Shown here piece by piece: positions 1,536 to 56,266 of a stretch of 64,000 bases of DNA. Where the stretch lies: IMG/VR virus record IMGVR_UViG_3300045988_019905. One strand, given 5' to 3'. The translations under genes and the position numbers were made by a program. Position 1 is the stretch's first letter, and each line of letters begins with the position of its first letter. The stretch is from a virus. Below the pieces are notes generated by a model. That model worked only from the letters and a program-made list of their open reading frames with translations, had not been told where the DNA came from and did not search any database.

Positions 1536-1558
1536 GCGCCCCGTAGAGGATGTGTAGG
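1536..1558 (+). repeat. GC-rich dispersed motif copy (intergenic)
   Basis: GCGCCCCGTAGAGGATGTGTAGG. Contains the exact 8-mer CCCCGTAG. Confidence 0.85.
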
Positions 1559-1580
1559 AATATAATCCTATTCATCCTCT
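1545..1580 (+). other. stem-loop built on the motif arm
   Basis: AGAGGATG (1545-1552) pairs with CATCCTCT (1573-1580). An inner TAGGA (1555-1559) pairs with TCCTA (1566-1570). It lies between the stop at 1527 and ATG 1600. Confidence 0.6.
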
Positions 1581-1599
1581 GCCTAATAAGCCAAACATT

Positions 1600-1779
1600 A
1601 TGTCTAAAGTTACATATATTAAAACTAAAGACAAACATGAAGATACATCTATCGAACAAGGTGTAGATGTTCATGCTGAACTACTTAATAATGATATTGA
1701 TGAACTTGCTAAAGCTGAAGAGCAAGACATTGATGATAATTATGACTTCGGCGAAGACGATTTTGGTTATTTAAAATAA
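1600..1779 (+). CDS. small acidic protein (59 aa, below the ORF-track cutoff)
   Basis: ATG 1600 to TAA 1777-1779, translated by hand: MSKVTYIKTKDKHEDTSIEQGVDVHAELLNNDIDELAKAEEQDIDDNYDFGEDDFGYLK. It fills an otherwise empty gap in the same direction. Confidence 0.4.
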   Translation: MSKVTYIKTKDKHEDTSIEQGVDVHAELLNNDIDELAKAEEQDIDDNYDFGEDDFGYLK

Positions 1780-1794
1780 TAAGGAGATAAAGAT

Positions 1795-2909: not shown

Positions 2910-2933
2910 TTTAATTATATAATATTATATTTT

Positions 2934-4259: not shown

Positions 4260-4283
4260 GCTGGTATAGGTTGTATTCATTCT

Positions 4284-4305
4284 CATCCTCTACGGGCGGC
4301 GGAGG
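4284..4305 (-). repeat. GC-rich dispersed motif copy (intergenic, degenerate C-run)
   Basis: CATCCTCTACGGGCGGCGGAGG on the given strand. Confidence 0.65.
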
Positions 4306-4316
4306 CACATAGTGCC
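4304..4316. other. short GC hairpin with a 3-nt loop next to the motif
   Basis: GGCAC-ATA-GTGCC. Confidence 0.5.
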
Positions 4317-7808: not shown

Positions 7809-10160
7809 GTGATTGATTGTAGAGCTGCGGATGTTGAGATACTTCCTAATTTCTTTAGTGTTACGTTTATTAGTCTTAATGATTATCTAAGAGTATTTGC
7901 AGATTGCGTTAATGACAAAGGTAAGCCTATACCGTTGGTTCAAAAACTAACTGTTGCTGAAATTAAACGTAGACTTGATACTGTCAAATGTGATGCTTTT
8001 TATATTACTGATAAAGATGATAGTCAACTATTGTCTCTTGTTGGTTATATTAATGGTATGCGACATAAAGGTGTTAATGTATATACTTATAATGGACTTA
8101 GCTATGATAATCTTATGGTGGCTGGGTTTCTTATGAATGTTGCTCACTTTGATAATACTAAAGATTTAATTAGGTATCTATATACTCTTAGTAAGAAGAT
8201 TATATCTCTTCAAGATGATAAGGAAAAACTATATAATGATTATCAGATTAATACTGTTAGACGTTTTAAGCTTCCTTATGTTGATGTTGATGTTATGCGA
8301 ATATTCGCTCTTAATAAAGCTGGAGTTAGAATTGATAAAGATACCGGTGAACGAAAAGCTACACCAAAAGGTCTTAAACAAACTTCTATAAATCTTCAAT
8401 GGTTTGAATTACTGGAATATGAACTTCCTCCTATTTGTGAAAAAGATGCAGAACTTTATTATGATAATCTATTATATAAAGGACTGCCTCCCGATAAGCT
8501 TAATAAACTTATTGACAAGTGGGATAGATATATATTAGATGAATATATTCCGCCTATGATGCATTATAATAAAAATGATGTGTTTATAGTATGTGAAATT
8601 GTTCGTCTTAATCCAGAAGAAGTTAAATCACGATATTCTGTTAGTAGTGTTTATAAAGTAAACGTACTTAATAGTAGTCGTAGTAATATGGCTGATATAT
8701 TGTTTGAAAAGTTCTATTCTGAACGTAGTGGTTTACCACCTGAAAAATGGAAAGGTAAACGTACTGAACGTACAGGTATGAATCTTGGTAAAATAATATT
8801 CCCATGTATAGAATTTAAGACTCCCGAACTTCAGAAACTTCTTGCTGAAATTAAAAAGACTACTATTTATAGAGTAAGCAAAGAAGAATTTAATAAAGAA
8901 GTTAAGATTGGTAATATAGTTTATAGTCTTGGTACAGGTGGTTTGCATAGTAGAGATATTCCTATGGAAATATGGAGTACTACTCCTTATGATGGTGGGA
9001 CTGTTGTCTCTGAATCTCCTACGGGGGAACAGAAAAATGCTAATCCTTTTACTATATTTCATTTTGATGTTGCCAGTTATTATCCAAGTATTATGGCAGA
9101 GTATGAAGTTGCTCCTGCTCATATGCTTAAGAAGATTTTTGCTGGTCTTATTCGTTGGATGAAAGATACGAGAGTTAAAGTTAAACATAGTCTTGATGAT
9201 ATTGTTGATGGTATTCCTCGTGATGTACTTGCTCTTGTATTGAAGATTGTGATAAATTCTATCTATGGTAAATTTGGTTTTGAAAAAGGAGATTTGTATG
9301 ACAGACGAGCTGTACTTGAAGTGACAATTAATGGTCAACTTATGTTGCTTATGCTTTGTGAACAACTTGAACTTAATGGTATTCATATTATTAGTGCTAA
9401 TACTGATGGTATCATGGTTAAGGTTTATGATAAAGATATAAGTAAATATGAGTGTATAACTCAATGGTGGCAAGAAAAGACAAAGATGAGTGCAGATACA
9501 GATGTAGTTCATTGTCTTATTGCTCGTGATGTTAATAACTATATTTGTCAATTCCGTACAAAGAAAGGTCTTAAACTTGAATATAAAGGTGCTCTTAATC
9601 CTCTTATGTATGCTGTTGATTTACAGAAAGGATATGATATGCCTATTGTTGCTCAAGCGGTTAGTGATTACTTTCTTAAGAATGTTCCTGTTATGGATAC
9701 ACTTCGTAAAGCTACTAATATTCTTGACTTTTGTAAGACACAGAACGTTGGACGTCAATTTCATGTCGAACAAACATTTGTTAATAATCAGCAAGTTCAA
9801 CAAGTTGTATGTCAAAGATATGTTAGGTTTTATATATCCAATACTGGCTGCATAATTGAGAAAGTTCATAATGATACTGCTTCTCGTTCTCGTATGGCTG
9901 CTGGTTCGTCTGTTACTGTTATAAATACTCTTGATGATGTTGATATTTCTCTTCGTAATATTAATTATAAGTATTATTATGAAGAAGCTATGAAGATTAT
10001 TAATCCTATCAAACTTGGTATTAGTCCTAAAGGAAAAGGTAGAACTCGTATTAAGAAAGCTTATGGACAATTTAATAGTCTTTTTGATGATGCTGCTTTT
10101 GAAGAGGAATACGCTGATGCTTATGTTGATGAAAATATAGATTATTATGAAGACGATTGA
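7809..10160 (+). CDS. family B DNA polymerase (783 aa)
   Basis: Exo I-like ADVEILPNFF. Pol motif A DVASYYPSIM (DxxSLYPS). Motif B KIVINSIYGKFG (KxxxNSxYG). Motif C ISANTDGIMV. GTG start at 7809. Confidence 0.9.
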   Translation: MIDCRAADVEILPNFFSVTFISLNDYLRVFADCVNDKGKPIPLVQKLTVAEIKRRLDTVKCDAFYITDKDDSQLLSLVGYINGMRHKGVNVYTYNGLSYDNLMVAGFLMNVAHFDNTKDLIRYLYTLSKKIISLQDDKEKLYNDYQINTVRRFKLPYVDVDVMRIFALNKAGVRIDKDTGERKATPKGLKQTSINLQWFELLEYELPPICEKDAELYYDNLLYKGLPPDKLNKLIDKWDRYILDEYIPPMMHYNKNDVFIVCEIVRLNPEEVKSRYSVSSVYKVNVLNSSRSNMADILFEKFYSERSGLPPEKWKGKRTERTGMNLGKIIFPCIEFKTPELQKLLAEIKKTTIYRVSKEEFNKEVKIGNIVYSLGTGGLHSRDIPMEIWSTTPYDGGTVVSESPTGEQKNANPFTIFHFDVASYYPSIMAEYEVAPAHMLKKIFAGLIRWMKDTRVKVKHSLDDIVDGIPRDVLALVLKIVINSIYGKFGFEKGDLYDRRAVLEVTINGQLMLLMLCEQLELNGIHIISANTDGIMVKVYDKDISKYECITQWWQEKTKMSADTDVVHCLIARDVNNYICQFRTKKGLKLEYKGALNPLMYAVDLQKGYDMPIVAQAVSDYFLKNVPVMDTLRKATNILDFCKTQNVGRQFHVEQTFVNNQQVQQVVCQRYVRFYISNTGCIIEKVHNDTASRSRMAAGSSVTVINTLDDVDISLRNINYKYYYEEAMKIINPIKLGISPKGKGRTRIKKAYGQFNSLFDDAAFEEEYADAYVDENIDYYEDD
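9015..9030 (-). repeat. GC-rich dispersed motif copy (inside polB)
   Basis: TCTCCTACGGGGGAAC, encoding SPTGE. Confidence 0.8.
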
Positions 10161-11529
10161 GTCAATGTATGAGACGTTAGCTGATAAGTGGGGACGAGAG
10201 AACAAAGGTCACGGTACAGTTCATTGTGTTAGACCTATGGAATACGCCAAACTAATCGTAGTGATATTAAAGAAGATGATGGCTAAGAATCCTGACCTAA
10301 AAGTTTTCATATGCGTTGATGCGTATGAAACTCGAAGGACTATTATAGAAGCTCTCACAAGTAATGAAATAAATCAAGAACATATTACTGTACTAAGTGA
10401 AACTTATGTTAATGCTCGGTATAGATATGTATATAATCTGGCAATTTTTGTTGGTCTTGAACGTTATAGTAATTATGTCAATTGTGTAGGAACTACTTCT
10501 GACTTTCATCTATTTATTATTACTAAAGATGTTATCGACTCTAATAACCTAATGGATATATATAAGCACTATCCTGCTGTTAATGTAGAACTAAGTGCGA
10601 ATGATATTAATGCTGTTAATTTGAGTTCCCCCGTAGAGGAACGAAGAGTAGGTTGCCTACTCCCTGTTGCTGATAAAGAAGAATATGATAAATATACTGA
10701 TTTTATAACTCAATGCTTTAATATATTTGGAGATTTTGATGCTATTACAAAAGCAAGAGTTGGAGATAGTAAAACTGGTGTTAGTGCTGCTGAATTTCGT
10801 AATCAGCTTGCGCTAAATAATGGTTGGTCTGCCGAACTTGATATGACTATTGGATTTAATCGTCAAATTGATGAATGTTATAATCCTAATATTCTATTAG
10901 ATAAGGCTACACTTTGTTATGAAATTATTCGCAAACGAAGTAATCTTGTTACAGATAATGATGTTAAACTTAATGCTATTCTTGATATTGTCAAGGAAAA
11001 TACTGGCAAACAAATAATGATTATATCTAAGCGTGGAGAGTTTGCTGCTCGTGTTACTGCTTATCTTGAAGAAAATGGTATTGATTGTGGAGATTATCAT
11101 GATGCTATTGAACCAAGAGTTCTTGTAGATGAAAATGGGATTCCTGTTTTATACAAGTCCGGTGCTAACAAGGGCAAGCCAAGAATCATCAAATCTAAAG
11201 CCATTTCCAGCGCGAATGAGCGACTTTTTCAGCAAGGACAATTAAAAGTATTATCCGTGAAAAATAGTTCGTCAGACGAGCTGCAAATAGCCGTAGACGT
11301 TTGGATTTTGACAAGTCCGCTATGTGATGAAGTTGCGGCTCTTAAATACCGTTTTAATAAAGTTCTTTTTAATAGTGCACCACATATTATATATAAGGTG
11401 TTCTTACAGGGAACAATCGAAGAAACGAAGCTATTACAGAGCAAGCCGAACCGATTCACAACTATTACTACTAAAACGGTAGATAGTGATATTTTTGATG
11501 AAAATAATTGTGGAATTATTTGTCAGTAA
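10147..11529 (+). CDS. SF2 helicase-like protein with degenerate ATPase motifs (460 aa)
   Basis: The C-terminal half resembles a helicase C domain (IMIISKRGEFAARVTAYLEENGIDCGDYHDAI...LFQQGQLKVLSV...VDVWILTSP). I could not find a canonical GxxxxGK[ST] Walker A. Confidence 0.4.
   Translation: MKTIESMYETLADKWGRENKGHGTVHCVRPMEYAKLIVVILKKMMAKNPDLKVFICVDAYETRRTIIEALTSNEINQEHITVLSETYVNARYRYVYNLAIFVGLERYSNYVNCVGTTSDFHLFIITKDVIDSNNLMDIYKHYPAVNVELSANDINAVNLSSPVEERRVGCLLPVADKEEYDKYTDFITQCFNIFGDFDAITKARVGDSKTGVSAAEFRNQLALNNGWSAELDMTIGFNRQIDECYNPNILLDKATLCYEIIRKRSNLVTDNDVKLNAILDIVKENTGKQIMIISKRGEFAARVTAYLEENGIDCGDYHDAIEPRVLVDENGIPVLYKSGANKGKPRIIKSKAISSANERLFQQGQLKVLSVKNSSSDELQIAVDVWILTSPLCDEVAALKYRFNKVLFNSAPHIIYKVFLQGTIEETKLLQSKPNRFTTITTKTVDSDIFDENNCGIICQ
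10624..10642 (+). repeat. GC-rich dispersed motif copy (inside the SF2-like gene)
   Basis: GTTCCCCCGTAGAGGAACG, encoding SPVEER. Confidence 0.8.
10645..10661. other. perfect 7-bp hairpin with a 3-nt loop just after the motif
   Basis: GAGTAGG-TTG-CCTACTC. Confidence 0.55.
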
Positions 11530-14639: not shown

Positions 14640-15836
14640 ATGAGAAGAACTATAAATAATGGTAGTCTTACAAAAGATACTATCCTTTCTAAAGTTAATC
14701 AAGTAAGTATTTTTAGTGCTTACACAGGTATTGATACAGATGTTATTGAACATTGTATTGCTACTGGCGAATTTATTTCAAGTCCTTTTCGTGTTGATGA
14801 ACATCCGAGTTTTGGTTTTAGATACGACAATCGTGGTAAGCTTAAAGGTAAAGACTTTGCTGGTTATTTTCATGGTGATTGTTTTGATGCTGCTGCTCTT
14901 GTTATTGGTGAGATTATCCATAAAAATGTAGATATATCTAATAAGGGTTGGTTTATCTTTGTTCTTAAACATATTGCTTATACTTTTAGAAATATTATAT
15001 ATGGTAAGGATAAAGATGAAACTATTAATGAAGTTATTGCTGATGGCATAAAAGCTGCTCGTAATAGAAAACCTATTATTGAATTTGTTCCTCGTCAATG
15101 GAATAATTATGATAAAAACTATTGGGGTAAATTTCATGTTCCTCTTAGTTATCTTAATACTAATTTTATATATCCTGTTCAACAATATTATGTTAATAGA
15201 AAGGTTAATCCTGAACCTAAATATTATTATGATGATGATAGAAAAGATGTTTGTTATGCTTATATTCTTGGACAAGATAAAAAAGGTATCTATAATATTA
15301 AACTTTATTTTCCTAATAGAAAACATGGTACTGTAAGGTTTATTACTAATAGTAATTGTCTTGAGGGATTACTTAATCTTGAACTTGATAAATATGATGC
15401 TATTATAATAACTAAGAGTACTAAAGATAGAATAAGTCTTAGAGCTTATCTTGACAGTATATCTCTTGACTTCTCCTACGGGGGGTCGCCCATAGAGAAT
15501 ATTGGTCTTGTTAATATTCCTCACGAATCGTATAAACTTAAACAGAATGAATATGATTGGCTACGAAGTCGTTGTCCTCATGGTTATATTGTTTCTCTTA
15601 TGGATAATGATAATGCTGGTTATCGAGAAGCTATTTGGCTTAGAGATAATTATGGTATAATTCCTTTTTGTATTCCAAGAGAATATGATGTTAAAGACTT
15701 TGCTGAATTACGTAGTCAATATTCAGTTGAATTTATTAAAGAACTTATAGATAAATCATATAAATATATAGTAGATAATTATGAAGAAACAGAACTTTCT
15801 TGGGATACGAACCAAGACAATCCTCTGCCGTACTAA
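14640..15836 (+). CDS. DnaG-like (TOPRIM) DNA primase with degenerate zinc-ribbon ligands (398 aa)
   Basis: SPFRVDEHPSFGF parallels CPFHxExxPSF, and FHGDCFDAA parallels the CxxC region, but most Cys/His ligands are replaced. TOPRIM-like IIITKSTKDRISL and VSLMDNDNAGYREA (DxD). Confidence 0.7.
   Translation: MRRTINNGSLTKDTILSKVNQVSIFSAYTGIDTDVIEHCIATGEFISSPFRVDEHPSFGFRYDNRGKLKGKDFAGYFHGDCFDAAALVIGEIIHKNVDISNKGWFIFVLKHIAYTFRNIIYGKDKDETINEVIADGIKAARNRKPIIEFVPRQWNNYDKNYWGKFHVPLSYLNTNFIYPVQQYYVNRKVNPEPKYYYDDDRKDVCYAYILGQDKKGIYNIKLYFPNRKHGTVRFITNSNCLEGLLNLELDKYDAIIITKSTKDRISLRAYLDSISLDFSYGGSPIENIGLVNIPHESYKLKQNEYDWLRSRCPHGYIVSLMDNDNAGYREAIWLRDNYGIIPFCIPREYDVKDFAELRSQYSVEFIKELIDKSYKYIVDNYEETELSWDTNQDNPLPY
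15471..15490 (-). repeat. GC-rich dispersed motif copy (inside the primase gene)
   Basis: TTCTCCTACGGGGGGTCGCC, encoding FSYGGSP. Confidence 0.85.
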
Positions 15837-16718: not shown

Positions 16719-17959
16719 TGGGACAATGGTTATATAGAAAGAATAATAATGAAGTACCTACTTGTTGGAGTGCTGAATTAGTTGAAAATGCTTCTAAGAT
16801 TATAGTCAGATATGGGATTGTTGGTAAAACTATTAGAACGGATGTTTATAGAGTTACACAAAAAGACCCTGCTGCTGAACTTAAAAGTAGATATAATGAT
16901 AAACGTAAGACTGGTTATGTAACTATGGAAGATGTCAAGGATGATGGTTCTATTATTCTTCCCCCCGTAGAGGATGTGGAAGGAGAACAATCGAGATTCC
17001 TTATAGACTATCTTAATACTTATCTTCCAAGTTATCGTACAAACGAAAATAATGGTGGGCTTCTTCCTATGCTTGCCAAATCTTATACAGGCAAAGTATG
17101 GGATAAAGTTCCTGTTATGCTTGGACAATATAAGATTAACGGTCTTAGATGTTTTATTAGTGCTGAATATAACAATGGAGATATGTTTAAACCTGTAAGA
17201 CTTAGATTCCAATCTCGTGAGGGTATTTATTGGAATACTCTTAACAATCTTGAAGAGTATCTTCTTTATTGGCTTGATAAGAGACTTATTCAATATATGC
17301 TTGATGAGAATTGGGTATTAGATGGTGAGGTTTATCTTCCTGGTTATAGTGTAAATCAGATTAATCATTTTGTTAAAGACGCTAATTGTGTTGAGAATAA
17401 AGCTCTTCAATTTTGGTGTTATGATGTTGCTGTTCAGGATATGAGACAAGAACTTAGGTATCATCTTCTTGAAGGACTTTTGCCTACTAAGATAACAAGA
17501 TTTCCTACTCTTGATGCTCATCTTAATAATAAGGAACGTATTATAGTTCTTCCTATTCATAGTATTACCAATGACGTCGAAGCTAAGAAAGCAAGAGATT
17601 TCTATATTGGTCTTGGATTTGAAGGACTTATTCTCCGTAATCCTGATGCTGACTATCAATATGGTCGTCGCCGTGTAGGTTATATGGAGAAGTTTAAATC
17701 TGCTACTGATGGTAAGTTTGTTATAGTCGATATTTATAAAGAACCTAAGAGAGACTTACCTATTATTCTTTGTCAGAATGATGTAAATCGTGCTAAATTT
17801 GAAACAAGACTTAGTGCTACCCATGAATATCAACAAATGGTACTTAGAGATAAACATCTTTATATCGGTAAACATCTCTTTGTTGAATTTGGAGAACGTA
17901 GTGGAGTTGAAAAAGTTCCTTTTCATATTAAACAAACTAAGATATTGTTAGATGAATAG
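16718..17959 (+). CDS. ATP-dependent DNA ligase (413 aa)
   Basis: Nucleotidyltransferase motif I YKINGLRCF (KxxG). Motif III LDGEVY. Motif IV FEGLILRNP. Motif V MEKFK. Confidence 0.8.
   Translation: MGQWLYRKNNNEVPTCWSAELVENASKIIVRYGIVGKTIRTDVYRVTQKDPAAELKSRYNDKRKTGYVTMEDVKDDGSIILPPVEDVEGEQSRFLIDYLNTYLPSYRTNENNGGLLPMLAKSYTGKVWDKVPVMLGQYKINGLRCFISAEYNNGDMFKPVRLRFQSREGIYWNTLNNLEEYLLYWLDKRLIQYMLDENWVLDGEVYLPGYSVNQINHFVKDANCVENKALQFWCYDVAVQDMRQELRYHLLEGLLPTKITRFPTLDAHLNNKERIIVLPIHSITNDVEAKKARDFYIGLGFEGLILRNPDADYQYGRRRVGYMEKFKSATDGKFVIVDIYKEPKRDLPIILCQNDVNRAKFETRLSATHEYQQMVLRDKHLYIGKHLFVEFGERSGVEKVPFHIKQTKILLDE
16961..16983 (+). repeat. GC-rich dispersed motif copy (inside the ligase gene), near-consensus
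   Basis: CCCCCCGTAGAGGATGTGGAAGG, encoding PPVEDVEG. Confidence 0.9.
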
Positions 17960-24856: not shown

Positions 24857-24900
24857 TAAGTCTACTGTTCGTGAGAATGGTAGACTTACTTGTTTATTCT
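24857..24900 (+). terminator. rho-independent terminator
   Basis: TAAGTCTAC (24857-24865) pairs with GTAGACTTA (24880-24888), followed by CTTGTTTATTCT. Confidence 0.65.
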
Positions 24901-24903
24901 GAT

Positions 24904-24918
24904 TCTCCTACGGGCGAC
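24904..24918 (-). repeat. GC-rich dispersed motif copy (intergenic, left half of an inverted pair)
   Basis: TCTCCTACGGGCGAC. Confidence 0.65.
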
Positions 24919-24924
24919 AGAGCT

Positions 24925-24947
24925 GTTCCCCCGTAGAGGATGTGCAC
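24925..24947 (+). repeat. GC-rich dispersed motif copy (intergenic, right half of an inverted pair)
   Basis: GTTCCCCCGTAGAGGATGTGCAC. Confidence 0.85.
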
Positions 24948-25850: not shown

Positions 25851-25907
25851 AAGCCCGTAGGCTGATAGGATAGTAGTATCTTATCAGTTCTACGGGCTTC
25901 TTTTTTT
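25851..25907. terminator. bidirectional terminator at the convergence point
   Basis: AAGCCCGTAG (25851-25860) pairs with CTACGGGCTT (25890-25899). An inner CTGATA pairs with TATCAG. T7 follows on the + strand and TTTTC on the - strand. The arms carry the GCCCGTAG core. Confidence 0.8.
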
Positions 25908-42300: not shown

Positions 42301-45282
42301 TCTAAGTTCTTGAGGAAGTATCTCATCAATTATGTCGGTCGGATAACCTTGACTAATAAGGTCATCTTTGATAGCAGAATATTGTGCATCATAATCAAGT
42401 GTAACAAGATTTTCATCAGTGTTACTAAGAAACTTATCAAGAAGATAAGCATTAATTTCAGAAGAAGCATTAAATTGTCTTTCTTGAGCAGCTTCTTGTT
42501 GAGCAAGTATAGAATGTAGTTCAGCATCAGCAGTATCTTCAGTTACAGGAGCAACAATTTCTGGGGGAGTTTCTTCTCTACCCCCCGTAGGTGTGGAAGT
42601 ATCAGGCTTAACTTCTTCGGGCTGTTCAGGTTCAGTAGGAGCTTCTTCTGTATTCTGAGCAACAACTGGAGGAGTTTGTACTGGTTGATTATTAACAGTA
42701 GCAGCAGGTTGTTGTCCTTTCTGTCTTGCTTTAAGTCTTGCGTGACGACTAATAACATCTACAATAGGTTCAGATGATTCATCAAACAGATTAAGGTCAC
42801 GGTTTATTCTATCAAGTTCGTCCTTAACATTATCACTAAGATTTACACCTGTATTGCCAGATAAATAATCAAGAACATCATCAATATCATTAGAGTCAAA
42901 AGCATTATCAAGTCTTTGAAGAGTATCTTTGAAAGCTTCATCTTCTGTAACTTTAAATATATTCTCAATATACTTAGCTCTATCTCTAATTTCTTTATTT
43001 GTTTCAGCAATATCACTACTAACCAAAGTTTTTCTTCGGTCTGCCATACTACGTCCAATTACAGCAGTAGCAATATTTTTATCTATATCATTAAGTTCTC
43101 TATAAGCATTAATATCACGAGCTTCATTATACATAGCATTAAATGCTGTTTCATCAGCAGCATTAACAGACTTAAGAAACGCTTGTTTCTTCTTATTTAT
43201 ACGACGAGCAATATGTCCATGTTCGAGTTTATTAATTTTCTTATCTCTAAGATTCTTATCATTAAGAGTAAGTTGTTGATTAAGATAATTAAGTTCTTGA
43301 TTAATACCCTCAAGATTAATAACTCTATTAAGTTCTCCAACACGAAGTTTAGCGTTCTCATCTGTTATATCATTAAGTGCTCGATTATAATCAGAAGTAT
43401 AACCGTCTATTATACGTTGTTCAGCTTTAGTAGCTAATTTATTATATGTATTCTCCTTAGCAATTCTACCAGCAATATTAGCGTCTTTAGCGTCATTATT
43501 AATAGCTTTATTAAGTTCAGTTTCATACATCTCTGAAACTTCAGCCATCTTAGCAACCGTATTTGCCATAAATTGTTTAGATTCTCCTTGTTCAATAGCA
43601 TCACTCTTATCCATATATTGAGCAGTATCTTCTGACATTAGAAAATCTTTAAGCAAATCATAGTTACCTTTGTCAATAGCATTAATTGTTAAATCTGTTA
43701 TTAACTTTTCAGTTTCAGTTTGTTTAAGAGCTTCACGTTCAGTATCACTTATTTCTTCATAAGCGTTAGTACCATCAGCATTTTGAATAACATTCCCACT
43801 ATCGTCAAGTATAGGACTATTAGGATTAAGATTATTATTCAAGATAGCCATATTATTTACATATCTATCAAGAAGAGCAGCACGACTATCAATTTCAGCT
43901 TTACGACTTTCTGTTAGAACATCTTTGTTCTTAGTAACATATTTAGCCCATTGTCTTGTAGCAGCACTACCTATTCCTTGAAAAGCAACTCCACCAAGCC
44001 ATCCCCAAAATGCTTGTTCCCACATTTGTGGGTCTTGAAGATAATCAGTATAAACACGAGATTGATAAGCATCATTAAGCATAGCACGACCTTTATCAAC
44101 TCCGGCTTGTTGTTGTACATATTGCCAACCCTCTTCAAATCCTTCACTACCCTCACGAACAACATTAAGAAGAGTTTCTTTATCAGGAACTTGTAGAAAC
44201 TTTTTAATACCAGTAGGCGATTGAATTTCTCTACCAACTAATCGAGCGGCAGCTTGTTCATTTGCTTTTCTCAAAGTTTTATTGGTAGCCATATTCTTAG
44301 CACCTTTCCAAATATTCTTTAGTCCTTTGAGCTGCCAAGCATCTAATAACATAAGCCACATATCATTCGTGAAAGTATCATCAGCAGATTCACCAGATAC
44401 ATATTTAGCAATTTCGTCATCACTAAGTCCACGAAGTTTAGGATTATTCTCATATAGAGTTTCTCTGTCTTTATCAGACATAGTAGCTAATCGTTCCTTA
44501 GCTTCATCATAAACTTGTGTATAAGTATCACGAGCTTCTATATAGTTTTCAGCAACTCTACTTGCAGCAGCAGTACCTAAAATCTCACTTCCAGTTTCTG
44601 CCATCTTACCCCAAGTATTAGGTCTACCAAATGGTGTACCAGCAACTTTACCGATACCACGAGCAAGACGTCCCATACCTAATACTTTACCAAGTTTAGA
44701 AACAGCAGTACCGGGAATAAGAAGACTCAAAGTAGAAGCTATACTAACAGCATTACCAAGCCACCAACCTGTATCTCCAAAATCAAAATTTTCATCAGGA
44801 TTAGTACGATAGATTTCAAATCTTTCACGAATAGCATCTTGCCATTCAGCAAGTTGAGAACTAACAGGATTTGTATAATCGTCATCAGAAACTCCTATAA
44901 GTTGCCCAGCAGCATCAACCAAATCACTAAATCCACGAAGAGTACCAAGAACAACTTCAGAACCAACAGCTTGCCCAACAAATCTACCGGTTTGCTCAAG
45001 TACTCCTTGATTTTCTGCACGTTCTTTATTTAATTCTTCTTCAGTATTATAAGGATTAACATAAACATTATAAGGAGTATATTTATCTACATCATATTGA
45101 TTAAGATTATAAATACCTTTAGCAAGTGTACGTCCTAAAACAGAACGACCCTCGTCACTAATAGAAGTGCCGGGGTTATAATCTGTAATAGTAGGGGGCT
45201 GAAGTGCCCCCTTTTTAGTCTTAGGATTATAGTCAGGATTATCTCTAACGTTTCCTTCTTGTGCAAACTTTAGTATATCCAT
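39373..45282 (-). CDS. large virion internal protein with a zincin HExxH motif (1969 aa)
   Basis: ORF. VRVLAHEQLHKRIY (HEQLH at 40111-40125) looks like a zinc-metallopeptidase signature. A Pro/Glu/Thr-rich linker reads QPVQTPPVVAQNTEEAPTEPEQPEEVKPDTSTPTGG. It lies directly upstream of the RNAP gene, as in crAss-like phages. Confidence 0.55.
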   Translation of the reverse strand: MDILKFAQEGNVRDNPDYNPKTKKGALQPPTITDYNPGTSISDEGRSVLGRTLAKGIYNLNQYDVDKYTPYNVYVNPYNTEEELNKERAENQGVLEQTGRFVGQAVGSEVVLGTLRGFSDLVDAAGQLIGVSDDDYTNPVSSQLAEWQDAIRERFEIYRTNPDENFDFGDTGWWLGNAVSIASTLSLLIPGTAVSKLGKVLGMGRLARGIGKVAGTPFGRPNTWGKMAETGSEILGTAAASRVAENYIEARDTYTQVYDEAKERLATMSDKDRETLYENNPKLRGLSDDEIAKYVSGESADDTFTNDMWLMLLDAWQLKGLKNIWKGAKNMATNKTLRKANEQAAARLVGREIQSPTGIKKFLQVPDKETLLNVVREGSEGFEEGWQYVQQQAGVDKGRAMLNDAYQSRVYTDYLQDPQMWEQAFWGWLGGVAFQGIGSAATRQWAKYVTKNKDVLTESRKAEIDSRAALLDRYVNNMAILNNNLNPNSPILDDSGNVIQNADGTNAYEEISDTEREALKQTETEKLITDLTINAIDKGNYDLLKDFLMSEDTAQYMDKSDAIEQGESKQFMANTVAKMAEVSEMYETELNKAINNDAKDANIAGRIAKENTYNKLATKAEQRIIDGYTSDYNRALNDITDENAKLRVGELNRVINLEGINQELNYLNQQLTLNDKNLRDKKINKLEHGHIARRINKKKQAFLKSVNAADETAFNAMYNEARDINAYRELNDIDKNIATAVIGRSMADRRKTLVSSDIAETNKEIRDRAKYIENIFKVTEDEAFKDTLQRLDNAFDSNDIDDVLDYLSGNTGVNLSDNVKDELDRINRDLNLFDESSEPIVDVISRHARLKARQKGQQPAATVNNQPVQTPPVVAQNTEEAPTEPEQPEEVKPDTSTPTGGREETPPEIVAPVTEDTADAELHSILAQQEAAQERQFNASSEINAYLLDKFLSNTDENLVTLDYDAQYSAIKDDLISQGYPTDIIDEILPQELRSIRYIYNSVQEMNNGEHASSIDFVIAKLMTADEANRAEYFRNLIDIYKADNNILSIGGKDYFNIISLMRFAINESNATFETVNKLYNDLSAYLVSGVDENLINISPRDVALSREKLMELVQDQERENPELDNNIGVRTDNDFGKQALASLAVGQPLIPVVKSQGVEFWTTVNSPAGPIDAKIGFNSRAKRTADNDGYIFDNGYLTYEIRYNEDGYSSTLDDLFDQLNPQNGVLSEEAKEFIDALYKNKAGRLTQEDIDKFWNNSLTKELLNQVKNKNTNNDNAVRLLRSIGSVYLYNVSDNLDANYQSYVDWIAKQYNNYKMVDNIIDNQDNIKITVKYISRGEAIFGDDVTPAAIDKAIVGFNYDDIHLGAIAADGEIHDITNGTVRIKAGFKNRNMVVIVPNGTNEPFYAKVIPQAVNYNNGLGAAIRDEVLNSIRERQQGNITFEELKDRLMSIFGVKNFIDGVNCIEYNNRIIITTAGSDIPMITIYKFKNDSTDLGTGITLNPTQVSGAGVGRTGWGGTLETELADVVNKLLDSSVYSMSHGIARGTDSNRYVKHEDNGSLTVTFGDKSYNYGNYLDYIIKNGTGKIRLGKTNIGGYESNFRPNPKDDSAKQKVRIEYEVLRPVEDAETARQAAINALEQRGDQDNVPTNDIIKATAPEFLTAADKAILDEILPANVSIDTFNDNTDYAVYHTADGSITLFKPFFNLARGSQYKAVRVLAHEQLHKRIYDNGIMQSQIFIDEISAIRDAFINALNNPDAYPDFTKHIQDNLYDRDNYIAQLRKVVDPASFPNKDYTYMLEEFIVESLTNNVLNEALNNISSTKKVTADVKRPNLWQKIIELIRQLFGFNKIKDNTLLAQELRAFGKKFKDIKSVEEKLIQDDVNNKVEEPTPPITTVINEQESTAAELSQQADDTMGLDVDISDMFSSIDITGDNLSVPNMASIRTGLTAAERTEFDRSLAAGETKIYCL
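40406..40426 (-). repeat. GC-rich dispersed motif copy (inside the 1969-aa gene)
   Basis: GCATCCTCTACGGGGCGCAGC. The coding strand encodes LRPVEDA. Confidence 0.85.
42581..42599 (+). repeat. GC-rich dispersed motif copy (inside the 1969-aa gene)
   Basis: CCCCCCGTAGGTGTGGAAG. The coding strand encodes STPTGGRE. An upstream GGGGGAG (42563-42569) can pair with CT-A-CCCCC. Confidence 0.85.
45193..45216 (+). other. GC hairpin plus T-run, antisense to the 5' end of the 1969-aa gene
   Basis: AGGGGGC (45193-45199) - TGAAGT - GCCCCCT (45206-45212), then TTTT. Confidence 0.5.
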
Positions 45283-47918: not shown

Positions 47919-49877
47919 TTAAAATGTAACACCTTTACTTGTAAACAATCTACGGTCAACATTAGGATGTGTAGCATCATAGATACCAAGAGTATTATTA
48001 TAATTTCTACGATTTTCAATACGACTAAGCATATCTTGAAGTCCAGCATTAATACCACTAAACATATTATTAAGAGAACTTGCTTTCTGTTCACGAATAC
48101 TATTACGGAAAGCGGCACTACGATTCTGCCAATCGTTCATAGCAGCAACATTAGTAGCTCTAACACCTTGCTTATTCAATCTATCTTGATTAATAAGTTG
48201 TGTTTCAATGTTCTCTTTTTGTCCACGAAGACTGTTCTTAGAAGTTTGTGCTTGATTACGAGTTCTTTGAAGTCTTTGTAGACGAGTTCTACTACTTGAA
48301 GTATTAGCATTAATATCAGTAGCCATACGACGAGCATTCTCTTCAATCTCTCCAAGTTGTGGACTAATGTTAAAATCAGTTTTAAGATTAGACGCTACAA
48401 CAGAATTAGGTTGAGGAGGAGCTTCCATATTATTAAGTGCTTTACGAGTATTAATACCGCTTGCAATAGTACCAGCAAGATTAGCACCAAGACCTATAAT
48501 ATCATTAGTGTCAAGTTTATCAAATAAAGCAAGTCTCTTACGAGGAGAACTAATAGTATCAGGAACGCCAGCATTAGTACTTGCGCCATCAACAGTACGA
48601 GTAGGTATCGTAGTTGGAATATTTCTTGATAAAGTAGGAAGTCCTTGCATCATACTATCAAGACTTGCAAATTTAGGAGCAGCAGTAGGTGTAGCAGTAG
48701 CAGAAGTTTTAGTAGTTTTGCTACTTCCACTTCTCCTACGGGGGGCAGAACTTGTAGCAGGTTTAGATGTCTTAGTTGCAGCTGTAGTAGCAGGAGCTTC
48801 TTCAATAGGAGTAACTCTTGTCTGTGGAGCACTATTTGTACTTCTTGTTCCAGTATTTCTGTTACCACCACTATAAGTTCCAGGAGTAAATTCAGGAACT
48901 TCTAACATATTTCTAAAGTCAGTTCTTGCACCTTTAGCGTCTCTACTTGCAGCATCAGTAACTTGTTTACGTTGTGCAGCAGCATCTCTTGCATAACTTG
49001 AAGCATCAGGATAACGAGTATCATAACTACCACGTCTAACAGTAAATCCTCTATTAGAACCAGAATTATTTTTACTACGACTTCCAGCACTATTTCCAGT
49101 TGCTCTATATTGAACAGGATTAAAAGGTTCTATAAAATTATTACCTTTTGGAATAGAACTATTAGCAACAGAAGCTTTAGCATCACGTTTAGCAGCAGCT
49201 CGTACTTGTCTATCAGATTTACGAGCAGCAGCACCACGACCATCAAGTAATCTACTATTAGGAACATCATCGTCAATAGGTAGATAAGCAGTTTCGCCAA
49301 ATTCATCATTAGTAACTTGATAAAGTTGTCCGTTCATAACAACATAATCTTTATCTCTCTTATCAGTACCAAGTGCAGCTTTTTTCCTACCCCCCGTAGG
49401 AGAAGGAAAAGGAACGTCTCCTACGAGCTTATCAATAACATTACCATTAACAGTAACAAAACCACCAGCAGCTTTTCTATTTTTATTAGGAACTAAACCA
49501 AGTTCTTCATCTATCTCAGTATTAGTTCTTCTACGAATCTTAACTTTACCACCCATACGTTTTTTACTTCCATCGTCATTAATTCCATTTACATCTTTAA
49601 ATGTTTCTTGTGCTTGAAACACTTTATCAGGATTAGCACCACCCATTACAAGTTTAGCAGGACTATTACCATTAATAATAGGTTGAGCACTAAATACTCT
49701 TAGACTATCTGGTCGTGTTTCGACAATCTCTCCATCTTCGACTTCTAAACCAGTCTTAGGATTCTTGCCAATATCAATACCACCTTGAGAGTGTTTACGA
49801 CCATTCATATAGTAAAGATTACCACCAATGTTAGTTGCTTTACCACCTCTAACTACATTTGGTTTAATTTTAGTCAT
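47919..49877 (-). CDS. putative virion internal protein, largely low-complexity (652 aa)
   Basis: A globular N-terminal region of about 100 aa (YYMNGRKHSQGGIDIGKNPKTGLEVEDGEIVE) is followed by about 400 aa rich in Ser/Thr/Arg/Ala/Pro. Confidence 0.55.
   Translation of the reverse strand: MTKIKPNVVRGGKATNIGGNLYYMNGRKHSQGGIDIGKNPKTGLEVEDGEIVETRPDSLRVFSAQPIINGNSPAKLVMGGANPDKVFQAQETFKDVNGINDDGSKKRMGGKVKIRRRTNTEIDEELGLVPNKNRKAAGGFVTVNGNVIDKLVGDVPFPSPTGGRKKAALGTDKRDKDYVVMNGQLYQVTNDEFGETAYLPIDDDVPNSRLLDGRGAAARKSDRQVRAAAKRDAKASVANSSIPKGNNFIEPFNPVQYRATGNSAGSRSKNNSGSNRGFTVRRGSYDTRYPDASSYARDAAAQRKQVTDAASRDAKGARTDFRNMLEVPEFTPGTYSGGNRNTGTRSTNSAPQTRVTPIEEAPATTAATKTSKPATSSAPRRRSGSSKTTKTSATATPTAAPKFASLDSMMQGLPTLSRNIPTTIPTRTVDGASTNAGVPDTISSPRKRLALFDKLDTNDIIGLGANLAGTIASGINTRKALNNMEAPPQPNSVVASNLKTDFNISPQLGEIEENARRMATDINANTSSSRTRLQRLQRTRNQAQTSKNSLRGQKENIETQLINQDRLNKQGVRATNVAAMNDWQNRSAAFRNSIREQKASSLNNMFSGINAGLQDMLSRIENRRNYNNTLGIYDATHPNVDRRLFTSKGVTF
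48724..48748 (-). repeat. GC-rich dispersed motif copy (inside the 652-aa gene)
   Basis: CTTCCACTTCTCCTACGGGGGGCAG. The coding strand encodes SAPRRRSGS. Confidence 0.9.
49387..49406 (+). repeat. GC-rich dispersed motif copy (inside the 652-aa gene)
   Basis: CTACCCCCCGTAGGAGAAGG. The coding strand encodes PSPTGGR. A local partner TCTCCTACG lies at 49417-49425. Confidence 0.9.
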
Positions 49878-53600: not shown

Positions 53601-55161
53601 CTTTACGAAAAGCTATATAAATATTATCAATATTTCCATAAAACAATTGTGTATCCTCATCATTATAAGGAGTAAAACGAAGAAACGCAGTATCATCTTT
53701 AAGGATACCACGCGCTCTATAATATTCTTTAATAGGAATAAGAATACAATAATCTAAATCAACACCAATAGTATTAGCATCAATTTGAGTTCTATTATAA
53801 ATTCCAACTTCATATACTTGACAATCTGTCATATATACTTTAGTAGAATTACTAAGAGCTTGGATATAACATTTATATTCTTTATCTAATTCAAAATCTG
53901 AATTAACAGGTTTTCTATCAGGGTTATTCCAAACATATTCAATAGCATTAGCTCTTCCAATTATACCATTGATAGGAAGATTAGCAGTATCTATCTTTGC
54001 AGAAAATGGTTCAGTTAGTTCTTCAAATTCAGCATCTTCAACTTTATTTTCTTCTCCGCCACTACGACTACGACCAAAGAAATCTACAAAATCATCAATA
54101 CTTGCTTGTTTAACAAAACTAACTTCTATACCACTTGTATCAATTTGGTCTACTACACTATTAGCATTTTCTTCTATATAATCAGCTACATAAAGTCTAT
54201 TCTGATAATTACATAGAGTATTGACATTATAAAGATTGAAGAAAGTAGACGTCATTTCGTCTATACTAATAGTATATTTATCATCTTGTTTATTAGTAAG
54301 ATTATAGATATTATTACCTATATCAGTTTTACCTTCAACAATAGCAATAGTTTCATGTTTAACAGTAGTAAGTACATATCCAATCTGATAATACTTATAA
54401 GTATTGGTCTTATCAAATATATCAATAACAAGTTGAATAGTCTTAGAGTTCTTTTCAGAAGTAGAGGAATATTCATCTTTAAGAATAACATTAGCCATAT
54501 AATTAGTATTATCACTATTTTTATATGCTACATACCAAGAGTTTTCAAGCTCTTTAACAGCAACTTCATTATAGACTATAATGGGAGCACCTAATTTAAA
54601 CCAATGAGTATAATCATATTCATTATTAAAGAATCTAATAAATAGAGCATAAGTTCCATTATATATAAGTCCGGAACCATTAACAAGATTATAAGCTCTA
54701 AGATTATAATTAGGAATAGGAGGATTCAAAGTATATTTACTTTCATCTCCAAAATTATCATAATTTGGTTCATCAAGATTAATACTTTTAAGAGGAACTC
54801 TTCCAATAGGATTATGTTCACTAATAGCAACAATAAGTTCATTATTGACATTGTAAGTATAGTCTCCAAATACTCGACCACCACCCCAAGTCCAATTGGT
54901 TACAACTTCTTTTTGAGTTCCCTCTTTTTCATTATATCTAATAATCCTATTCTTATTTGTAAAAAGAATAAATTCATTAGAACAAGCAATATGACCAACA
55001 ATTAATTCTCCATCTGGAAGAGCAACAAATTCTTCAATGGCATTTTCATTCTGAATACCACCATTATCAGTATTAACAACGATATTACTCGCATGAGCAA
55101 GAGTTCCACTTTCAAGAAACTCTATATCATTGTCTGTGTCAAGTCTTTTATTAATTTCCAT
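50626..55161 (-). CDS. large tail structural protein (1511 aa), possibly the muzzle/hub-type component
   Basis: Asn/Tyr-rich ORF predicted to be beta-rich. It sits just upstream of the internal-protein block, as the tail muzzle gene does in characterised crAss-like phages. The functional call rests on position only. Confidence 0.5.
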   Translation of the reverse strand: MEINKRLDTDNDIEFLESGTLAHASNIVVNTDNGGIQNENAIEEFVALPDGELIVGHIACSNEFILFTNKNRIIRYNEKEGTQKEVVTNWTWGGGRVFGDYTYNVNNELIVAISEHNPIGRVPLKSINLDEPNYDNFGDESKYTLNPPIPNYNLRAYNLVNGSGLIYNGTYALFIRFFNNEYDYTHWFKLGAPIIVYNEVAVKELENSWYVAYKNSDNTNYMANVILKDEYSSTSEKNSKTIQLVIDIFDKTNTYKYYQIGYVLTTVKHETIAIVEGKTDIGNNIYNLTNKQDDKYTISIDEMTSTFFNLYNVNTLCNYQNRLYVADYIEENANSVVDQIDTSGIEVSFVKQASIDDFVDFFGRSRSGGEENKVEDAEFEELTEPFSAKIDTANLPINGIIGRANAIEYVWNNPDRKPVNSDFELDKEYKCYIQALSNSTKVYMTDCQVYEVGIYNRTQIDANTIGVDLDYCILIPIKEYYRARGILKDDTAFLRFTPYNDEDTQLFYGNIDNIYIAFRKADVGRYAESNYSEAIYAYRGVIINIPDFNNRKNTEIIFDFNDVDPTVYTQRVNIWQYRTSSVKLDNGYTAGQYINVYNIAYNDRILINSYVASPDRKWAITENVYNFFIHYVYPNGSYTDGIRINNNVKVNYNINLGKKADGSYVYYTINNDTTIEDCKTYSKNNGVTDTTNAHAVTKIFTDDIQDIYFINVFPDSYSSNNTTPYRNNRGETFFRPISSVNNGTDIAYGYFKFSNIPMYKDFIGYFISYEETEPILCARAIVGSIDQNISVISRSGSAYFQDFVTVGANAFNFIKLGAPFTYTVGYNKEVGLYGTNYYGGYYLSNSPWDDSYDAQYDGLYAVVNKNIQNPGEVYNGSPARINFTLNRDTNFTPVKGIDINNRITTYTYKRMGLLYNYTNEIYTNTNKKLISLGYIAYDEYIENKPGGYTYGSSSSIKYDYDYYVYTDKYEIQDSNGTTRRNFKYELVTIPVCGLILTDGSPYPLRGDNGQYYYPNLPTENWPANNFFHMYGFHIIKIGFPFVSRYMYHCRTLKTEPVTRAFTYYHTDGSGNTNWSHNHTNKNIVPDKVDNLFELNSAYYDYTDKVLTSFNKDVYSNYVTNYKKTIRRSDVISDENVENNWRTFRAEEYKVIAENKGNIVNVVGIGSYLIAHCEHSMFIFNRDSSMKTENKDVQLVIPDAFGIDYVEVFTSNKGYAGIQKHGQFICSNYGYIFYDNDARKLYRYDENNLEDITAGFKNLLTKEVTDINFAIDEKNVRLLCLGKVKSGDTEQMFAISYSFLHKAWISTHTYWYDYLFNTKDNVYFANESTIDKFNFAKFNNYINLIDNTSNYFNGEFKTIEELDEEDGIINTHIVPYSFIDVIFNNQNMDTVLNYISYIINKERNDNYCGDELVIYTNCCFSDYVDISKPKESMKDYKHPYYRYGIWFMNWFRNVIKEIKTVPPIDRHTGKYNEVNKQLSKLDNKLIVGKYFAIRFIFRDENKTINIDDIQCY

Positions 55162-55213
55162 ATAGATTGACTTATTTTAAAGCCCGCACAGCCATTATCT
55201 CGATTCGACTTGA

Positions 55214-55351
55214 TTAGTTCATTGATATAAAAAATATCTCTGAATAGAGGTCAAAAGAATTAGGTCTACGGACGTCATTTACGGGTACGCACCGGATAGT
55301 GAAAACATACAGCCCGTTTACTACTTTGATAAGTTCTACATTATCATTCAT
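55214..55351 (-). CDS. possible small protein (45 aa)
   Basis: Translated by hand: MNDNVELIKVVNGLYVFTIRCVPVNDVRRPNSFDLYSEIFFISMN. It starts 6 nt after the upstream stop, in an otherwise 195-nt gap. Confidence 0.25.
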   Translation of the reverse strand: MNDNVELIKVVNGLYVFTIRCVPVNDVRRPNSFDLYSEIFFISMN

Positions 55352-55357
55352 AGTATC

Positions 55358-56266
55358 TCAACGTTTAGGAAAAGTATAATTATAGAAATAACTTCTCCAA
55401 GCATTACTATCATCATTACCTGTTTGTTTCTGCATATCAACAATCACTCCGGCTCTTGCTTTATCTTTAAGTTGCATCCACTGATAATAAGGATTAGTAC
55501 CATACTGACTTGCATTAAGATTAAATACCGGATGCTTCATACCACGACATAACATCTTATACATACAGTAAAAACCAATAGCTTCAATAAGAATACCATT
55601 ATTAGGTATAACAGGTACATCACATTTATAATAATCACTATATTCAGTTTCAACTTCAAGAGATTCAATCTCTATACAATCAGCATCATAATTAAGTTCA
55701 ATAGTATCTCCACAAATAAGGACATAGTTTCTATCTTCACTTCCCTTACGGGGGGTAGAATAAATCTCCTCATGTACAATATGTTGATAAGCAGGTACAT
55801 CACTATTAGTATGAATTGCAACAGAACCATAAGTTTCTTTACCAGTATAACCGGTATCCACAACTGATACTCTATCAGACGCTCCACAATCACAAGGAGG
55901 ATAAACAACACAATCAGGATTATCTCTATCAGTAGGTTTATTATAATACCCTTGACCAGATGGGCGACCCCCCGTAGAGGGTGTGCAGGAACAATCCTTA
56001 CTCCCACCGGTAAGCCGTTTAATCTCACAACCATTACTATCATATACTTTAAGTTCTCTGTCACTAAGTGGACAATAACTACGAGCTATACGATTAGTAA
56101 CATTAAGTTTTCGTCTCTTAGGAACATACCTAAGGACATCAAGCTGACTCATTGCATCAATAGTCCAAGCAATAACACGAGGAATCCAGTCACTACCATC
56201 AGGATTAAAATCGTTGTCTATTTTGGCTATTATGCGCTCCACGCTTGTATTTACATTGTTCAACAT
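55358..56266 (-). CDS. hypothetical structural protein, Cys-rich centre (302 aa)
   Basis: ORF. It carries two motif copies 220 bp apart. Confidence 0.6.
   Translation of the reverse strand: MLNNVNTSVERIIAKIDNDFNPDGSDWIPRVIAWTIDAMSQLDVLRYVPKRRKLNVTNRIARSYCPLSDRELKVYDSNGCEIKRLTGGSKDCSCTPSTGGRPSGQGYYNKPTDRDNPDCVVYPPCDCGASDRVSVVDTGYTGKETYGSVAIHTNSDVPAYQHIVHEEIYSTPRKGSEDRNYVLICGDTIELNYDADCIEIESLEVETEYSDYYKCDVPVIPNNGILIEAIGFYCMYKMLCRGMKHPVFNLNASQYGTNPYYQWMQLKDKARAGVIVDMQKQTGNDDSNAWRSYFYNYTFPKR
55741..55758 (-). repeat. GC-rich dispersed motif copy (variant TTACGGGGGG)
   Basis: TTCCCTTACGGGGGGTAG. The coding strand encodes STPRKG. Confidence 0.7.
55963..55989 (+). repeat. GC-rich dispersed motif copy
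   Basis: GGCGACCCCCCGTAGAGGGTGTGCAGG. The coding strand encodes CTPSTGGRP. Confidence 0.9.

Follow-up and report, generated by a model that had tools for sequence, protein, structure and literature searches.

The 64,000-nucleotide stretch of viral DNA analyzed here (IMG/VR virus record IMGVR_UViG_3300045988_019905; the window, below) carries 18 copies of a GC-rich motif, scattered on both strands through genes and between them. With about even confidence, we read this motif as a cis-acting DNA recognition word that is maintained by selection genome-wide in the Intestiviridae and read by a co-evolving sequence-specific factor. The data rule out chance, coding conservation, a signal at the mRNA level and a general hairpin, and they argue strongly against a neutral selfish insert.

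Alignment of all CCCGTAR matches in the window gave 18 copies of approximately (Y)C4-6-GTAG-RGGAWG(T)GRA. A position weight matrix built from these recovers exactly the same 18, at 26-45 bits. No match scores between 12 and 26 bits, leaving a clean gap above background, and the scan returns no copy in 56-64 kb. The 8-mer CCCCGTAG occurs 15 times on the two strands, against 0.21 ± 0.43 expected (100 dinucleotide-preserving shuffles; maximum 2). It was observed 13 times in coding sequence, against 0.10 ± 0.32 when synonymous codons were shuffled within each of 40 open reading frames (ORFs) with the proteins and codon usage held fixed. The three copies without the exact 8-mer have GCCCGTAG (4296- and 24914-) or GTAA (55752-). 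Fourteen copies lie in ORFs and four are intergenic; eight are on the + strand and ten on the - strand. The genic copies are divided equally between sense and antisense (seven each) and fall in five codon registers (PVED/E four times, PRR/K three, xTGG five, YGG one and LRG one). The motif codons are rare in the window: CCC makes up 5% of Pro codons, GGG 3% of Gly and ACG 5% of Thr. The CCCGTAG matches at 18414 and 55285 are unrelated to the motif, and those at 25854/25896 are the two arms of one terminator hairpin, not motif copies.

A preliminary description, made from the letters of this stretch, had listed the 18 copies, with the exact 8-mer in 15 of them against about 0.2 expected. It placed 14 in frame in genes and four between genes, in either orientation and in different reading frames, and saw none in 56-64 kb. 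All copies were found where it had put them, the enrichment survives both the dinucleotide and the synonymous-codon nulls, and the description is correct in every particular that could be tested.

The window is part of a crAss-like phage. Its gene order is that of the prototype crAssphage (Carjivirus communis, BK010471), to which it has a patchy nucleotide similarity of ~74%; the SNF2-like protein is only ~45% identical. Genes up to ~25.8 kb are on the + strand (helicase, PolB, SNF2, primase, ligase, deoxynucleoside monophosphate (dNMP) kinase, ThyX, Gam-like protein and dUTPase), and those beyond are on the - strand (a gene for an RNA polymerase (RNAP) of 4453 amino acids (aa), and virion genes). 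Most motif copies are written into genes because crAss-like genomes of the Intestiviridae are ~90% coding. The copies are listed here, with the encoded peptide for those in genes.

1535..1557, + strand: GCGCCCCGTAGAGGATGTGTAGG, intergenic, after the ORF at 943-1527
4279..4301, - strand: GCCGCCCGTAGAGGATGAG, long form, intergenic
9008..9030, - strand: family B DNA polymerase, antisense, SPTGE; orthologous to crAssphage 10178-
10625..10647, + strand: SNF2-like ATPase, sense, SPVEER; orthologous in all sampled Intestiviridae genomes
15465..15487, - strand: DnaG-type primase homologue, antisense, SYGGSP; orthologous in all sampled Intestiviridae genomes
16959..16981, + strand: ATP-dependent DNA ligase, sense, PPVEDVEG; orthologous to crAssphage 18158+
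19355..19377, - strand: last codons of dNMP kinase, antisense, SLRGN
24897..24919, - strand: intergenic, left half of an inverted pair
24925..24947, + strand: intergenic, right half of the inverted pair
28169..28191, - strand: 4453-aa RNA polymerase gene, sense, FPRRRR; window lineage only
32262..32284, - strand: RNA polymerase gene, sense, SPVEDE; window lineage only, no insertion or deletion (indel) relative to crAssphage
36329..36351, + strand: RNA polymerase gene, antisense, SSTGG; orthologous to crAssphage 39093+
40402..40424, - strand: 1969-aa gene (crAssphage gp45 homologue), sense, RPVEDA; orthologous to crAssphage 42687-
42579..42601, + strand: 1969-aa gene (gp45 homologue), antisense, TPTGGRE; orthologous to crAssphage 44954+
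48725..48747, - strand: 652-aa gene (gp47 homologue), sense, APRRRS; orthologous to crAssphage 50981-
49388..49410, + strand: 652-aa gene (gp47 homologue), antisense, SPTGGR; window lineage only
55735..55757, - strand: GTAA variant, 302-aa tail gene (gp50 homologue), sense, TPRKG; orthologous to crAssphage 58524-
55966..55988, + strand: 302-aa tail gene (gp50 homologue), antisense, PSTGGRP; orthologous to crAssphage 58728+

The preliminary description missed that the motif is a family-wide trait, present in the prototype as well. All sampled Intestiviridae genomes carry the word, each with its own flanks or tolerated purine positions; the tolerated positions are GT[AG]G in Carjivirus, GTA[AG]A in Diorhovirus and C[AG]TA in Jahgtovirus. 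In crAssphage it is a tighter 25-nt word, GKNTWKACYCCCCGTRGAGGATGGA, of ~38 bits, with 31 copies on both strands, genic and intergenic; the central purine gives GTAG in 16 of these and GTGG in 15. The other versions are as follows.

cr3_1 (Diorhovirus): TTGYTCCCCCGTARAGGAAC
cr11_1 (Delmidovirus): GACMCCCCGTAGAGGAW
crAss002 (Jahgtovirus): TTCCCCCRTARAGGAGYG
cr8_1 (Obtuvirinae): TCTAGCCSCCCCGTAAAAGGTATG
IMG/VR contig L023: YTCCCCGTARAGGGA

The invariant core is at least 16 nt long and holds ~28-38 bits. Complete genomes of 91-97 kb contain 25-31 copies, the same density as in the window (~1 per 3 kb), divided between the + and - strands as 18/13 in crAssphage, 15/14 in cr3_1, 11/14 in crAss002 and 17/12 in cr11_1. 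The word was not found in crAss001 (Steigviridae) or cr127_1 (Crevaviridae). A search with the window 15-mer CCCCCGTAGAGGATG against 185,579 bacterial and archaeal species (one genome each) gave, among the matches listed, only scattered single matches in unrelated, mostly GC-rich taxa, with Bacteroidales not exhaustively covered; on these matches a host-derived repeat is ruled out. The only contig listed with more than one match is a mis-binned p-crAssphage. This 98,042-bp contig (L082, CAUWBF010000007.1), from a metagenome-assembled genome labeled 'uncultured Clostridia bacterium', has two copies in contexts matching crAssphage sites 83024 and 78930, and it is evidently a complete p-crAssphage genome placed in a bacterial bin. 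In open-access text we found no published description of the motif or its sequence in crAss-like phages, which agrees with the statement in the preliminary description that no function for such a motif is on record.

Other repeats were seen in the two genomes outside the family. In crAss001 (L027, MH675552 1-50000), TCCAGAAG(G) is over-represented, with ~20 copies in 50 kb; its coding copies number 11 in sense against 2.65 in synonymous-codon shuffles and mostly encode xPEG/xPEE or QK. It could be a weaker analogue of the word or just a peptide preference. A different repeat of ~45 nt, TTTCGGAACACCTCTCGCCCTTGTGGCCATTAWAC, has six copies in 36 kb of cr127_1 (L155, NC_055886 1-36456, 25% GC), at 1766+, 11367-, 11909+, 19696+, 28695+ and 28882-. 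These are mostly intergenic and include one inverted pair; the repeat may be promoter-like, or an analogous dispersed element of another crAss family.

We aligned the proteins of 11 gene pairs between the window and crAssphage and took sites within six residues of each other as sharing a column. Ten of the 14 genic window sites have a crAssphage site in the same column and orientation: those in polB, SNF2, primase, ligase, RNAP, gp45 (two), gp47 and gp50 (two). The SNF2 and primase sites are common to all three subfamilies sampled, and every site is present in the three 98%-identical relatives. The protein segments that host the copies are poorly conserved. The polB copy, for example, sits in a length-variable loop just before polymerase motif A; this loop varies in length and sequence even between crAssphage alleles, with the word intact.

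The same picture emerges within a population. Seven orthologous sites were located in 17 crAssphage strains through their flanking sequence, without use of the motif. Over ~110 instances the core ACYCCCCGT-R-GAGGA shows just two singleton changes, the central purine is the only position that flips freely, and the flanks have a nucleotide diversity (π) of ~0.11. No presence/absence polymorphism was found among 15-17 strains; all sites are present. Copies within one genome, orthologous ones included, all share the flavor of their lineage, and the sites therefore change in concert between lineages. One RNAP site shows how a copy can come or go. crAssphage has CTC CCC GTG GAG GAT (LPVED), a motif copy, and the window has CTT CCT ATT GAA GAC (LPIED), which is not one and consists of ordinary AT-rich codons; (near-)synonymous substitutions can thus make or lose a site without an indel. 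Insertions are seen at some lineage-specific sites: one of 5 aa in the crAssphage RNAP at 30499, a 10-residue C-terminal extension of the window kinase that holds the copy 19355..19377 and is missing in crAssphage, and a large one in crAssphage gp47. Both routes, point substitution and small insertion, may operate in site gain. The synonymous-codon shuffle, the use of several frames and both orientations, and the LPVED/LPIED site rule out ordinary coding conservation and show that selection acts on the nucleotides and not on the peptide, as the preliminary description had concluded.

The p-crAssphage strains (L006-L022) also carry two sharply different PolB loop alleles upstream of motif A (e.g. 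L008 vs L010, 8780-9020), which differ on either side of the motif, in length as well as in sequence. Two or three flank types are likewise seen in SNF2 and ligase, and these assort in different combinations between strains; the mixed assortment of polB, SNF2 and ligase flank types points to frequent recombination in p-crAssphage. The sites were also considered as recombination junctions. In comparisons of 12 crAssphage strains, the ends of long stretches of identity show only a ~2.5-fold enrichment within 20 nt of sites, a figure confounded by the A/G polymorphism and the variable flanks.

The arrangement of the copies along the genome is not random. In nine of ten strand sets, the spacing between same-strand copies is more even than chance would give, with a coefficient of variation (CV) of 0.23-0.58.

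Window, + strand: CV 0.23, P 0.0006
Window, - strand: CV 0.31, P 0.0007
crAssphage, + strand: CV 0.31, P ~1e-5
crAssphage, - strand: CV 0.43, P 0.001
cr3_1, + strand: CV 0.41, P 0.0003
cr3_1, - strand: CV 0.55, P 0.015
crAss002, - strand: CV 0.49, P 0.004
cr11_1, + strand: CV 0.58, P 0.014
cr11_1, - strand: CV 0.45, P 0.003

The regularity is weaker when both strands are pooled (CV ~0.6-0.66). Neighboring copies tend to alternate in orientation, and 21 of the 22 neighbor pairs less than 700 nt apart are inverted, where about half would be expected to be direct; 55966..55988 and 55752-, 219 nt apart, form such a pair. Ninety-seven of 132 copies are genic, 45 in sense and 52 in antisense, so orientation is neutral with respect to the coding strand; the other 35 are intergenic, a ~3-fold enrichment. 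We found no orientation bias toward either genome arm; copies in both orientations occur on each arm.

Among the candidate explanations in the preliminary description, three in number, the best fit is a site recognized by a DNA-binding, nicking or modifying activity. The word would be read on DNA by a putative sequence-specific protein, phage-encoded or virion-borne, whose specificity co-evolves with its sites. Copies in genes sit in tolerant loops or over compatible peptides (P-V-E-D, S-T-G-G) and are written with otherwise rare GC-rich codons. The information content of the word is far above the need in a 97-kb genome and is about that needed for uniqueness beside ~6 Mb of host DNA; at ~28-38 bits the word would be private to the phage within the cell. 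The per-strand regularity suggests that orientation matters and favors a strand-specific processing site. That each copy is such a site, a nick or a priming/loading point, is possible though doubtful. The sites would serve replication, recombination-dependent replication or the maturation of the genome; each strand would need a copy every 5-8 kb, and intergenic inverted pairs would be used additionally as hairpin terminators. We also propose, tentatively and somewhat short of even confidence, a private strand-specific 'punctuation' word, codon-written through essential genes and read by a co-evolving phage enzyme. At intervals of a few kb on each strand, it would initiate, halt or permit a DNA transaction such as nick-primed or RNA-primed synthesis or nuclease control.

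Several points weigh against the reading of the motif as a selected recognition word with strand-specific use. The + strand of crAss002, with a 35-kb stretch lacking any copy, is the exception to even spacing, and coverage per strand is thus not absolute. The spacing tests are not fully independent, because regularity is partly shared by descent. Close direct repeats could be scarce because deletions are selected against, and not because of function. Small insertions at some lineage-specific sites are what an inserting element would leave. Known phage nick words are one-stranded, and the copies here are on both strands. The reader protein, nick, primer and binding are predictions from sequence. 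The text of the crAss001 structural atlas has no occurrence of 'IHF' (integration host factor) or 'DNA-binding', and hence offers no lead to an IHF-like reader in the virion.

crAss-like phages are the dominant human gut viruses, with the most abundant one belonging to the Intestiviridae, and their replication and genome maturation are almost unstudied. A word kept at ~30 fixed places per genome marks a DNA transaction important to the phage, at a cost of rare codons in polymerase, primase, ligase, RNA polymerase and tail genes, and it is an example of how strongly viral protein loops can be constrained by a signal in the DNA itself. It offers experimenters exact coordinates, a bait sequence for the reader protein and a lineage-diagnostic signature.

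The copies might instead be orientation-blind sites for a genome-organizing or packaging protein, acting in capsid condensation, attachment to a replication factory or partition. The orientation pattern would then arise only from the purging of deletion-prone close direct repeats. We consider this unlikely. When close pairs are merged into loci and strand is ignored, spacing is regular in crAssphage and cr3_1 (CV 0.43-0.48, P = 0.0008-0.007), as such sites would predict, and it is not significantly regular in cr11_1 and crAss002. The alternation of neighbors, the near absence of short-range direct pairs and the weak dyad flanks in several lineage versions (TCC...GGA, TTCC...GGAA) also speak for it. 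Against it, the word is strongly asymmetric and the regularity per strand exceeds the pooled regularity.

A second alternative is a phage-private 'self' word, Chi-like or uptake-like. A translocating helicase-nuclease, encoded by host or phage, would alter its behavior where it meets the word in the right orientation, and phage DNA would be protected or favored from either end. The strand specificity, the presence of both orientations and the even spacing per strand are consistent with it, as are a length sufficient for absence from the host and a form like that of bacterial uptake sequences (inverted pairs as terminators, in-frame copies in variable regions, even spacing). Also in its favor, a RecD-like SF1 helicase and a Gam-like protein are among the phage gene products, and RecT and a PD-(D/E)XK nuclease are annotated in crAssphage. 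Known Chi sites, however, are 5-8 nt long and abundant in their hosts, whereas this word of 16-25 nt was not found in bacteria among the matches listed, and it has no orientation bias toward either arm. On balance we judge a 'self' word improbable.

We give a similarly low probability to the selfish GC-cluster-like mini-element of the preliminary description, which would copy itself, survive in frame, be homogenized by gene conversion and have no function for the phage. Some lineage-specific copies do lie in insertions (RNAP 30499, the window kinase and crAssphage gp47); ten of the 14 genic sites are shared, and one site differs by point substitutions only, with no indel. Two further observations suit a mobile element: copies are more alike within a genome than orthologues are between genomes, and point mutation alone would not easily build a word longer than 16 nt. 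Positions and orientations, however, are kept across genera and subfamilies, copy number is constant and same-strand spacing even. A neutral GC word should decay under AT-biased mutation, yet the core does not vary within the population. No target duplication, terminal repeat or adjacent annotated transposase was noticed (no systematic search was made), and the bacterial genomes lack the motif family among the matches listed.

The third candidate was a structural DNA or RNA hairpin signal. As single-stranded DNA, 11-12 of 17 site windows fold no better than shuffles; most single copies have z ~0 and most genic copies fold at the shuffle level, which rules out the motif as a general hairpin. 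Only paired copies give terminator-like hairpins. The pairs that do so are intergenic or convergent: window 24908-24936, crAssphage 22902/22937 and crAss002 64741/64786. In the window this pair (24897..24947) forms a small hairpin, CTACGGG...CCCGTAG. An imperfect hairpin at 1545-1580 (DNA fold z = -2.7) has the 3' half of the copy 1535..1557 as its left arm. The low z-score of the SNF2 site window (-3.5) is due to a separate, perfect 7-bp hairpin, GAGTAGG-TTG-CCTACTC at 10646-10662, which is intragenic and directly 3' of the copy. A related structure lies where the two gene blocks of the window meet.

25851..25907, no strand assigned: hairpin resembling a bidirectional terminator, at the point where the two gene blocks converge; DNA fold z = -6.6

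It has CCCGTAG in both arms, is flanked by an A run and a T run, and looks like a degenerate inverted motif pair. No Rfam family matches the window, which rules out a known RNA family.

CGCT-rich GC mini-hairpins (4-7 bp stem, 3-4 nt loop; e.g. GGCAC-TAY-GTGCC, GAGTGC-TAC-GCACTC and CAGGGC-TTC-GCCCTG) were seen 6-12 nt 5' of a subset of copies, mostly intergenic.

Window: 4304-4316
crAssphage: 6040-6060, 28045-28060, 93645-93657 and 95885-95900
L024: 35080-35100
L026: 28300-28320

The one in the window, GGCAC-TAT-GTGCC, precedes the copy 4279..4301 on the motif strand. Some are neighbors of the two crAssphage RepL genes, and at least two lie within genes (crAssphage gp45 and gp50). A hairpin, ~10 nt and then the word recalls the layout of relaxase/Rep nick regions.

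Early transcripts of the crAss-like phage phi14:2 have no upstream motif in common, and its middle and late genes are expressed from host-type promoters. Both this absence of an early-promoter motif and the orientation of the copies rule the motif out as a promoter of the virion RNA polymerase. A role of the copies in transcription by the polymerase of host or phage, as promoters, terminators or RNA structures, is altogether very improbable: the strong hairpins of inverted pairs at intergenic or convergent junctions and at 25851-25907, the intergenic enrichment, the lean of unpaired intergenic copies to one orientation (15 to 6, counted by hand from the site lists) and the upstream mini-hairpins at some intergenic copies would fit it, and they are set against the genic majority in both senses, with three copies inside the 13-kb RNAP gene, the unstructured single copies, the phi14:2 promoter data and the Rfam result.

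Two sequence records begin near a copy. Position 1 of contig L003 (IMGVR_UViG_3300045988_010361) corresponds to window ~4313, inside the GC mini-hairpin and ~20 nt from the site at 4296; of 10 contig ends examined, it is the only one near a site. The cr11_1 record (NC_055876) starts 65 nt from a motif copy that appears, by position, to be the polB site. Such starts could come about by chance or through reduced coverage at the GC-rich word, or they could hint at a physical break in the DNA; as a sign of nicks at the sites, both cases are anecdotal only. Separately, 8-mers of the GCTGCTGC/CAGCAGCA type are also strongly over-represented across the window (TGCTGCTG: 20 copies, where base composition predicts 0.57). 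Their source is probably Ala/Ser/Gln-rich repeats of virion proteins and not a signal.

Several known systems resemble the word in part. The nick words of T5-, phiKMV- and LUZ24/tf-like phages (e.g. CGACN5CCTA/CTCCGG; TACT/RTGMC) occur in 4-14 copies on one strand. In phiKMV- and tf-like phages the nick sites are long words, their positions are conserved among relatives and the consensus co-evolves with the nickase; near-cognate sequences are rare, and the function is still unknown even where nicks are proven. The present word is likewise an asymmetric dispersed word, found inside genes too, with conserved positions, few near-cognate sequences and a consensus that shifts between lineages. It differs in using both strands about equally, with 25-31 copies, and it is known from its sequence, whereas nicks are proven in those phages.

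The DNA uptake sequences (DUS) of Neisseria and uptake signal sequences (USS) of Pasteurellaceae occur in both orientations with even spacing, form inverted pairs at terminators, have in-frame copies in poorly conserved protein segments and extend a core by lineage-specific flanks. The word here is alike in its two orientations, over-even spacing, inverted terminator pairs, in-frame copies and core with lineage flanks. DUS and USS, in contrast, belong to cellular chromosomes with competence machinery and are ~10 times denser; this word is confined to phage genomes, judged by the bacterial matches listed, and we know of no uptake process for a phage genome. Chi is similarly strand-specific, genome-wide and over-represented, and it controls a translocating helicase-nuclease. 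It is 5-8 nt long and abundant in the host, with an orientation biased by replication, whereas the word here is 16-25 nt long, private to the phage and unbiased.

REP (repetitive extragenic palindromic) elements have a conserved GT[AG]G tetranucleotide. The GT[AG]G alternation in crAssphage resembles these REP/RAYT systems, as do the GC-rich hairpins adjoining some intergenic copies. REP elements, however, are extragenic imperfect palindromes 3' of GTAG, whereas 14 of 18 copies here are intragenic and most are unfolded. The GenBank annotations of the crAssphage, cr3_1, cr11_1 and crAss002 regions contain no RAYT (Y1 transposase) gene, although no dedicated profile search was made. Yeast mitochondrial GC clusters and Rickettsia palindromic elements are also GC-rich islands in AT-rich genomes, in frame in genes. 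They are 30-150 nt long, palindromic and polymorphic in presence; the word here is 16-25 nt long, mostly non-palindromic, conserved in position and under purifying selection. T7 promoters, with an information content of ~35 bits, are comparable in information and in their tens of near-identical phage-private copies. They are intergenic and co-oriented with transcription, unlike the orientation-neutral, mostly intragenic word described here.

Several defining features of these families were tested for and are absent: the one-strandedness of nick words, the residence of uptake sequences in a cellular genome (on the bacterial matches listed), the shortness and orientation bias of Chi, the extragenic palindromes of REP elements, the palindromic structure and presence/absence polymorphism of mobile GC clusters, and the intergenic position and transcription-tied orientation of promoters. 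With nick words the motif shares positions conserved among related phages and a lineage-specific consensus, and with uptake sequences it shares both orientations, over-even spacing and inverted pairs as terminators. We place it among the genome-wide oriented DNA words; it is a real, strongly selected, family-wide signal. If the 'punctuation' reading is true, it would be the so far undescribed viral counterpart of Chi or of uptake sequences.

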